Assembly (NCBI GenBank): GCA_965655095.1
Contig: OZ296653.1
Coordinates: 50,344,001-50,408,000, forward strand
Origin: Haplodiscus bocki
Lineage: Eukaryota
Reading direction: 5' to 3'
Length of the DNA: 64,000 nucleotides
Shown: one piece after another, positions 42,235 through 43,578 of the stretch
Numbering within the stretch: the stretch's first letter is position 1
Layout: each line of letters begins with the position of its first letter
Notes under the pieces: model-generated
The model's database searches: none
The model's input: only the letters and a program-made list of their open reading frames with translations
What the model was told of the DNA's origin: nothing
Made by a program: the position numbers and the translations under genes

Positions 42235-42540
42235 ATGAATAACCTCTTTTGGGGCTATCAGCACCGTACTTTAACATGCGAGATATTCCAAAATATCACG
42301 ATTAGAAGAATTGAACATCGCGGACTCACTTCACCATGTCTTCGACTTTATACACAGAGGTGGCACCACCAAATGCTGGTGTTTGATGAATTTAATGTCT
42401 CACCGCATACATTTGAATGGAGTGCATTGATTGACTCCGCCAGGCAATATGCTGATAACGAAGAGCTGCAAGATTTTGCTGACTGGCTTATCACAGTCGA
42501 GCAGCCACAAAGGCGCACATTATTCTTCATGGTCTTGTAA
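42235..42540 (+). CDS. Trp-rich small accessory protein, paralog 1 (101 aa, unknown function)
   Basis: MNNLFW..C.I..P..RW..L..SPHTFEWSALI..A..DW pattern shared with the next two ORFs. Confidence 0.75.
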   Translation: MNNLFWGYQHRTLTCEIFQNITIRRIEHRGLTSPCLRLYTQRWHHQMLVFDEFNVSPHTFEWSALIDSARQYADNEELQDFADWLITVEQPQRRTLFFMVL

Positions 42541-42599
42541 CATGACACCTGAACTCACTTAATGATCGTGGATCAATCATCATTTATCTTATCAGCCTC

Positions 42600-42635
42600 T
42601 ATAAAAACACAGATTTTCCACTTCTATCATCAGTC
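42600..42635 (+). promoter_or_regulatory. Candidate TATA plus TCAGT initiator upstream of paralog 2
   Basis: TATAAAA at 42600 and TCAGT ~30 nt downstream; similar TATATA...TCAGT at 43233-43262 before paralog 3. Confidence 0.5.
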
Positions 42636-42666
42636 TTAACTCAGCCAATCAACGTTAGATACCACC

Positions 42667-42948
42667 ATGAGTCATTTATTTTGGAGAATTCCCATCACTG
42701 GATACACATGTGATATTCATGGCGTTCCTGTGGTCTGGAGAATGATCCCTTCATACATCACCCCCCGAGTGGATTTCACAATCCGTTATTGGAGACAAGG
42801 AGAACTCATATACAAAGATTTTACAATTTACCCGGAATCACCGGAATGGAACACACTCATGAGTGCCACTGCTCCCTACGCTTATGACTTCAACTTGGCT
42901 GAAGATCTCCTTGATTGGATGGCCAGACAAAACCGAAGCCATCTGTGA
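42667..42948 (+). CDS. Trp-rich small accessory protein, paralog 2 (93 aa)
   Basis: CACCATG start; MSHLFW..YTCDI..P..YW..L..YPESPEWNTLM..A..LLDW. Confidence 0.78.
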   Translation: MSHLFWRIPITGYTCDIHGVPVVWRMIPSYITPRVDFTIRYWRQGELIYKDFTIYPESPEWNTLMSATAPYAYDFNLAEDLLDWMARQNRSHL

Positions 42949-43269
42949 ATTCAGATCATGACAACACAACTTTAATCACTCTTATAAAAGGAACTACTTT
43001 TTCTTGAATGTTCATATTTTAGTTTTTTATGTATTGGAAATTTGAGAAACAAAAACAAAAAACACAAACAAAAAACACGATATCTGAGTTTCCAGCATCC
43101 CATTTAAGAATTGTACGTTGTTCATTCATAAGAACAATATTTTTCTTTGGCGTCAGTTTTCCCTGATGAAAGTCAAACATTGTAATATGCACTTAGACTT
43201 TTTTGAGCATGAGAAGCTTGACAGCTCTCGAGTATATACTAACCTTTTCGAGCAGTTTCAGTTTTGAAA

Positions 43270-43578
43270 ATGCACCATTTAAATTGGCTTTAATCCCACG
43301 AATACTACGTTTGCAACGTTTTTGGGAGAGTTCAACTAGTCGGTATTAGCGGCGAATTTGGCTACCCCCCACTAATTTTGACATTCCGCCGATGGAATTA
43401 TGGCCATTTATTGTATTGGCACGACCCTATAATCCCGAACACCCCCGCCTGGAATGAACTGATCGCATGCGCAGCCCGTAACGCGGAAACAGCCAGCCAA
43501 GATTCACTTGTCGACTGGCTGATTCACCTTGACGTCTTAGCCATCCAATCCATGGCTTGGTATAATCAGAGCGAGTGA
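43270..43578 (+). pseudogene. Trp-rich small accessory protein, paralog 3 (in-frame TAA at 43291)
   Basis: MHHLNWL*SHEYYVCNVFG..PPLILTFRRWNYGHLL..IPNTPAWNELIACA..LVDWL; the ATG at 43270 is in frame with ORF 43378-43578. Confidence 0.72.

Follow-up and report, generated by a model that had tools for sequence, protein, structure and literature searches.

Tandem orphan paralogs between pol and env of a Ty3/gypsy-type LTR retroelement as accessory genes

Introduction

Accessory genes set complex retroviruses apart and point to the host defenses that matter. Those of lentiviruses encode proteins of about 100 aa, lie between pol and env, include the duplicated pair Vpr/Vpx, and are expressed from one major splice donor and several acceptors. 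For Ty3/gypsy elements, the usual picture is one of gag and pol, with no more than env or a single additional ORF beside them.

A wide distribution of Ty3/gypsy elements with env is documented in the survey of “ancient errantiviruses” by Chary and Hayashi, the first filter of which admits a POL-ENV gap of at most 1000 nt and the main text of which contains neither “macro” nor “accessory” (PMC13524379). Other LTR elements are known to bear additional genes. The CERV protein of C. elegans Cer1, produced from a spliced mRNA, is encoded by a single gene and has a shown role in RNA export (PMC10309623), whereas sORF2 of Drosophila Gypsy/mdg1 is a small extra ORF under purifying selection that codes for a FAST-like transmembrane fusogen (PMC13486581). 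The ORF3s of bdelloid LTR elements (PMC5408684), the AlkB demethylase, i.e., a 2-oxoglutarate dioxygenase, of an orchid Gypsy element (PMC9289625), and the macrodomains of fish ERVs (PMC4977317) are cases of enzymes captured by LTR elements and presumed to work against surveillance by the host.

The locus described here lies in a 64,000-nucleotide stretch of Haplodiscus bocki DNA (hereafter, the window), in which a first-pass annotation had pointed out a tandem triplet of small Trp-rich ORFs (ORF1-3) and likened them to viral host antagonists. The element that carries them shares the LTR-gag-pol-env layout, the multicopy state and the recent activity of the “ancient errantiviruses” as these are described, but its pol and env are separated by 4.6 kb of additional genes, so that elements of this kind would be filtered out of that survey by its 1000-nt limit (PMC13524379). 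Like Vpr/Vpx, these genes encode duplicated proteins of about 100 aa between pol and env, with one donor, several putative acceptors and a role that we infer to be that of adaptors. Unlike Vpr/Vpx, they have a predicted sheet and helical-hairpin fold, form arrays of up to four members, and occur in a host that, as far as the reverse transcriptase (RT) suggests, is not a lentivirus host; no sequence or fold homology to Vpr, Vpx, or Vif appeared among the matches listed. They resemble CERV as novel accessory proteins presumably made from spliced mRNA, but form an array of paralogs. The bdelloid, orchid and fish cargoes are, in the descriptions cited above, single captured host-like enzymes, whereas a duplicated orphan family, a macrodomain and a JmjC-like ORF occur here together. 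In the open literature searched, no element of this type was found to carry a duplicated array of orphan accessory genes. We class the genes as a new protein family on a known kind of element, the env-bearing Ty3/gypsy type.

The Carrier Element

ORF1-3 sit within an env-bearing LTR element of about 16 kb (33905-49884), flanked on one side by pol, which terminates in a TARG1-like macrodomain, and on the other by an antisense ORF and env. Its features, in window coordinates, are the following:

33905..34395, + strand: 5′ LTR; matches the 3′ LTR at 486 of 489 aligned bases, with 5 gap columns
34577..34610, + strand: leader mini-exon; ATG at 34577, 9 codons plus 1 nt, GTAAGT donor at 34605
34874..35857, + strand: gag-like ORF; weak DUF1759 and Ty3_capsid matches
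36286..39885, + strand: pol (protease, RT, RNase H, integrase); Pfam RVT_1, RT_RNaseH, Integrase_H2C2, and rve; broken by stops in the window copy
40220..41845, + strand: C-terminal part of pol with a TARG1/OARD1-like macrodomain (about 41264-41695); Pfam Macro
42235..42540, + strand: ORF1, paralog clade A; 101 aa
42600..42658, + strand: region upstream of ORF2; TATAAAA at 42600, Inr-like TCAGTC at 42630, YAG ending at 42658, 8 nt before the ATG
42667..42948, + strand: ORF2, paralog clade B; 93 aa
43237..43261, + strand: region upstream of ORF3; branch-point-like TACTAAC at 43237, acceptor TTTCAG at 43256-43261, 8 nt before the ATG
43270..43578, + strand: ORF3, paralog clade C; 102 codons, in-frame TAA at 43291
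44627..45822, - strand: antisense ORF, fragmented in the window copy; JmjC-like H-x-E...H and basic tail, a resemblance at motif level only
46511..48842, + strand: env-like gene without its own ATG; acceptor TTTCAG at 46511-46516, two overlapping frames in the window copy
49393..49884, + strand: 3′ LTR; purine tract directly upstream

Paired LTRs of 491 bp, a 5-bp target-site duplication (CCATT) on both sides, a PBS-like TGG at 34396 directly after the 5′ LTR and the purine tract are the marks of an LTR retrotransposon, the LTR termini being TG...GA rather than TG...CA. The order protease-RT-RNase H-integrase, as given by Pfam matches, is the Ty3/gypsy arrangement. Among PDB matches of the RT, foamy-virus RT ranks first (1e-12), followed by Ty3 RT (3e-9). 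The macrodomain best resembles human TARG1/OARD1 (E ~1e-28). The env-like protein has no Pfam or PDB sequence match; inspection of its sequence reveals a spliced hydrophobic leader, a basic site with a hydrophobic stretch, and a C-terminal hydrophobic segment. The carrier of ORF1-3 is an env-bearing Ty3/gypsy-type LTR retroelement. The label “viral” was therefore right in kind, since an endogenous retroelement with env carries the genes, while the label “host antagonist” fits the anatomy and is a matter of interpretation, taken up below.

The window copy has lost the open frames of pol, ORF3, the antisense ORF and env, despite LTRs that differ by just 3 substitutions and 5 gap columns. Since the LTRs are near-identical while the genes are broken, this is probably a defective copy moved in trans or one that underwent LTR conversion. 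Elsewhere, the window contains a second, related LTR element with a zinc-knuckle gag and a broken pol (1329-8452, - strand), an RT ORF (56136-57668) with, after it, at least 3 tandem copies of a 2.4-kb repeat (within 55861-64000), and two host genes with long open frames on the - strand, coding for a mitochondrial carrier (31703-32662) and Vps39 (13386-15305).

The antisense ORF is open over 350-420 codons in many other copies and its triad-like residues (H-x-E...H) are near-invariant. It has no Pfam or PDB match; pairwise profile comparison gave E values of 0.008 against JmjC ORFs of sister elements and 0.03 against host JmjC. Versions from 12 copies (L135-L146) are 32-58% identical, close pairs reaching 82-94%, and most of these copies belong to a family in which ORF1-3 are about 90-95% identical. 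Because it diverges so far despite such similarity of its neighbors, the antisense ORF appears to be a swappable cassette. Contig depth falls several-fold across 43728-46312. In sister env-bearing families (L167-L174, e.g., G000:C2:80323100-80333000), with pol 52-61% identical, the macrodomain is followed by an antisense JmjC ORF above the Pfam cut-off, then by one or two Cys-rich ORFs, then by env. These Cys-rich ORFs (94-111 aa, CxCCxP; 95 genomic matches to one of them) look like a second orphan accessory family; comparison gave no support for homology to ORF1-3.

An Old Tandem Array of Paralogs

The triplet of related Trp-rich ORFs was confirmed at the coordinates listed above, with 4-6 Trp per protein. 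ORF1-3 share only 26-32% pairwise identity and are nonetheless true paralogs: their local alignments score 95, 97, and 106, where shuffled sequences average about 26 (z 14.6-16.1), and none of 2000 shuffles matched the real scores. All the motifs named by the first-pass annotation were found, and the three-way alignment has 13 invariant columns. Across the family, only M, W, C, L, P, W, and A remain near-invariant.

ORF3 had been thought visible only by reading through its TAA, which is rendered as X in the translation. Read-through is unnecessary and was rejected: codon 8 is open in 25 of the 27 copies examined, and because the stop is specific to the other two, we take it as post-insertion decay.

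Searches of the 1.5-Gb eukaryotic genome that contains the window with each of ORF1, ORF2, and ORF3 returned at least 150 matches apiece. All three ORFs are present in the same order at each of the 30 loci that best match ORF2, a set selected by ORF2 similarity. Neither outcome that would have refuted the triplet, a non-significant alignment or a lack of conservation elsewhere, was therefore seen. At 40 more distant loci drawn from the match lists, each match adjoins macrodomain, integrase, antisense ORF or env sequence. Four paralog clades occur in the fixed order A-D-B-C across element families, sister families holding two, three, or four per array. Among 67 loci picked by hand from the match lists, the layouts are A-B-C (33, of which 29 were chosen by ORF2), A-D (18), A-D-B-C (8), and partial (8); this count omits L021 and L042, and L068 fell below threshold. 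Clade A is found in nearly every complete array.

Identity between clades is 20-30%. In a tree of 31 proteins, clades A (99/95), C (100/99), and D (96/88) are supported, while the B-type sequences form three supported groups beneath an open fork; since that fork is open and long branches meet, the deep branching order is unsure. With four clades and synonymous sites near saturation between families, the proposal of old duplications that retained key residues stands: the array arose by old tandem duplication into clades A, D, B, and C, of which sister families keep different sets. Two unusual loci were noted. One (L042; G000:C12:67.74-67.81 Mb) consists of dozens of tandem units of about 1.44 kb, each with macrodomain, clade A and clade D, some with open frames. 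The other (L051/L125; G000:C6:99.26-99.27 Mb) is a recombinant with an A-D array and a 5′ region 92% like that of the window's family. Public-database matches to the paralogs are unnamed ENA proteins, one clade of which is without a close counterpart in the searched genome. P0042, P0046, P0072, and P0074 form a divergent clade in public ENA contigs, and as nothing in the searched genome exceeds 38% identity to P0046, the family probably extends to another genome.

Purifying Selection

Polymorphism was scored in 28 copies plus the window copy, a variant present in at least 3 copies being counted as shared. Shared variants give pN/pS of 0.15 for ORF1, 0.25 for ORF2, and 0.05 for ORF3, with zero shared stops; the macrodomain gives 0.42 and the spacers 0.77-1.63. 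For singletons within ORF1-3 the ratio is 0.48-0.88, as expected of ORFs that decay after insertion. In 8 of 9 pairs compared between families, dN is 0.18-0.79 and dS runs from 1.1 up to saturation, and the proteins retain 29-72% identity where dS is saturated. The ninth pair, two ORF2 subfamilies (dN 0.10, dS 0.15), gives a hint that ORF2 may evolve faster. Purifying selection acted on each clade during the period in which the element replicated, and the check for positive selection suggested earlier turned up the opposite overall signal. The array thus places small genes kept by selection between pol and env, as in complex retroviruses.

Protein Properties and the Clade A Tail

No Pfam, PDB, Atlas or fold match was obtained for the paralogs. 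PH-like and SH3/KOW-like folds were considered as candidates, a structural match well above background being required. Two AlphaFold models agree on a small domain made of a sheet and a helical hairpin (pLDDT 83), a fold that may be new. The conserved residues are core-like, no invariant catalytic residue was found among the paralogs, and none of seven proteins contains a transmembrane stretch (maximal 19-residue hydropathy 0.46-1.06); these are small, soluble, non-enzymatic domains. A FAST-like identity was accordingly rejected for all seven, which sets them apart from sORF2 as described (PMC13486581).

A C-terminal extension exists only in clade A; in ORF1 it spans residues 94-101, with pLDDT <50. 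This low-confidence tail carries RxLF (residues 94-97; 42514-42525), a motif absent from 2760 aa of gag/pol/env. Of 60 clade A copies, 50 have an RxL-type motif in the tail, including 23 of 31 outside the window's family, and the tail is better conserved than the body (identity 0.59 vs. 0.44). The C-terminus of ORF1 (42514-42540) ends in T/M-V-L, which we take to resemble a PDZ-binding end and hence an alternative to cyclin docking. The clade A tail matches the docking consensus, which calls for [RK]xL followed by F or L within a conserved, disordered segment. RxLF is reported as the strongest cyclin-docking core, although fewer than 15% of RxL consensus matches bind cyclins, and the window's ORF1 is without the trailing acidic or hydroxyl residue of the stricter consensus given there (PMC12356897). 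HCMV pUL21a, a small viral protein whose conserved RxL motif binds cyclin A (PMC3873445), serves as our working model for clade A, binding being shown there and the motif only here, with no homology between the two. Docking of clade A on cyclin-CDK through this tail is a tentative suggestion drawn from the motif, and the most concrete lead on function.

Expression Signals

GTAAGT at 34605, 28 nt from the ATG at 34577, is the single perfect donor in the element. The phase-1 leader and donor are conserved in 23 of 25 same-family copies and in 8 of 16 other-family copies having a gag match; four more of the latter have the donor without an open leader, and four have neither. By automatic count, the env acceptor TTTCAG is phase-matched to the leader exon at 17 of 26 loci, and splicing of env from a leader donor is also the arrangement of Drosophila gypsy. 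The same spliced-leader arrangement is reported for Tor3a env (PMC4402516).

A YAG lies exactly 8 nt upstream of the ATG in five paralog groups (22/26, 4/5, 28/30, 8/10, and 26/29 copies) and at 11 nt in a sixth (3/3). Both spacings are in phase with the leader, against a background of 9.5% for a near in-phase YAG, and the groups are not independent, because spacing is inherited from common ancestors. Off this scheme, ORF1 of the window's family has no acceptor at -8, its nearest YAG being at 19 nt and out of phase (20/30 copies); clade C of the four-gene family has an out-of-phase YAG at 7 nt (7/8 copies); one B group has its YAG at 13 or 14 nt; and no acceptor is conserved upstream of clade D. 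No AATAAA or ATTAAA occurs within 41800-44443. Invariant Met1 poorly suits an in-frame fused leader. Because donor, leader and acceptor signals are conserved, expression from spliced sub-genomic mRNAs, with one donor and many acceptors, is likely.

Possible Functions

The reading that we favor, with a probability of about 0.55, is that ORF1-3, as accessory genes of the retroelement, are expressed by splicing and endowed with a host-binding role. After the old tandem duplication and the sorting of clades A, D, B, and C among element families, singly spliced sub-genomic mRNAs starting in the 5′ LTR would join donor 34605 to an acceptor just upstream of each paralog, as for env. As adaptors, the products would each engage other host proteins and weaken the control that the host exerts over the element, and clade A might in addition engage cyclin-CDK via its RxLF tail. 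The adaptor role seems the most likely one, if only by a modest degree of belief, because the proteins are small and soluble, with no membrane segment and no invariant catalytic residue; their divergence from clade to clade, their conservation inside each clade, and their free gain and loss complete an adaptor-type profile. Host antagonism would likewise fit soluble, non-enzymatic proteins of varying copy number with an RxLF tail and macrodomain and JmjC-like neighbors; the lack of overall positive selection speaks against it.

The same genes might instead serve the element's own life cycle, as virion or capsid components, aids to Env trafficking or a hetero-oligomer of paralogs. Purifying selection stronger than on the macrodomain, the near-constant presence of clade A and acceptors phase-linked to the env leader exon would all suit such a role, but clades B, C, and D come and go freely between families, which together with the low inter-clade identity would be unusual for structural parts, and the conserved disordered RxLF tail points outward; we consider this explanation rather unlikely. 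A regulator that exports or stabilizes unspliced genomic RNA, or steers acceptor choice, would answer the need created by one strong donor and several acceptors, namely the export of intron-containing RNA, which Cer1 meets with CERV made from spliced mRNA (PMC10309623). Yet of seven paralogs tested, six are acidic to neutral (pI 4.2-6.6; 4-10 K+R) and have no arginine-rich tract, so that a Rev-like export factor was rejected, and a single regulator would not require four diverged clades; this explanation is improbable.

Expression, for its part, could rely on internal promoters or on spliced-leader trans-splicing at the same acceptors rather than on cis-splicing to the 5′ donor. TATAAAA at 42600 and TCAGTC at 42630 are canonically spaced upstream of ORF2, 32 nt apart, internal promoters have a precedent in env of Oikopleura Tor3b/4b as reported in PMC4402516, and acceptors 7-11 nt before an invariant Met, along with the out-of-phase cases, would suit trans-splicing. 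However, a TATA box was not found before most other paralogs, and the 8- and 11-nt spacings agree in phase with the cis donor that serves env, which leaves this route unlikely. Finally, the ORFs could be non-functional, arising by chance or carried along as passengers, as the decay of the window copy and the near-neutral singleton changes would allow. This is extremely improbable: the family folds confidently, its proteins stay similar across families with saturated dS, and the strong synonymous bias of shared variants refutes it unless the counts are alignment artefacts.

Significance

A bolder and still doubtful extension of the favored reading is that an invertebrate Ty3/gypsy lineage independently became a “complex retrovirus,” with one donor and several acceptors, an expandable array of new-fold accessory proteins of which one docks on host cyclin-CDK, a de-ADP-ribosylating macrodomain and a swappable antisense JmjC-type dioxygenase, which together might counter cell-cycle, ADP-ribosylation and chromatin defenses. 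In elements of the window's type, selection maintains between two and four divergent copies of an orphan domain, and the host partners of these proteins of about 100 aa would reveal factors of restriction or silencing in a host that has received little study.
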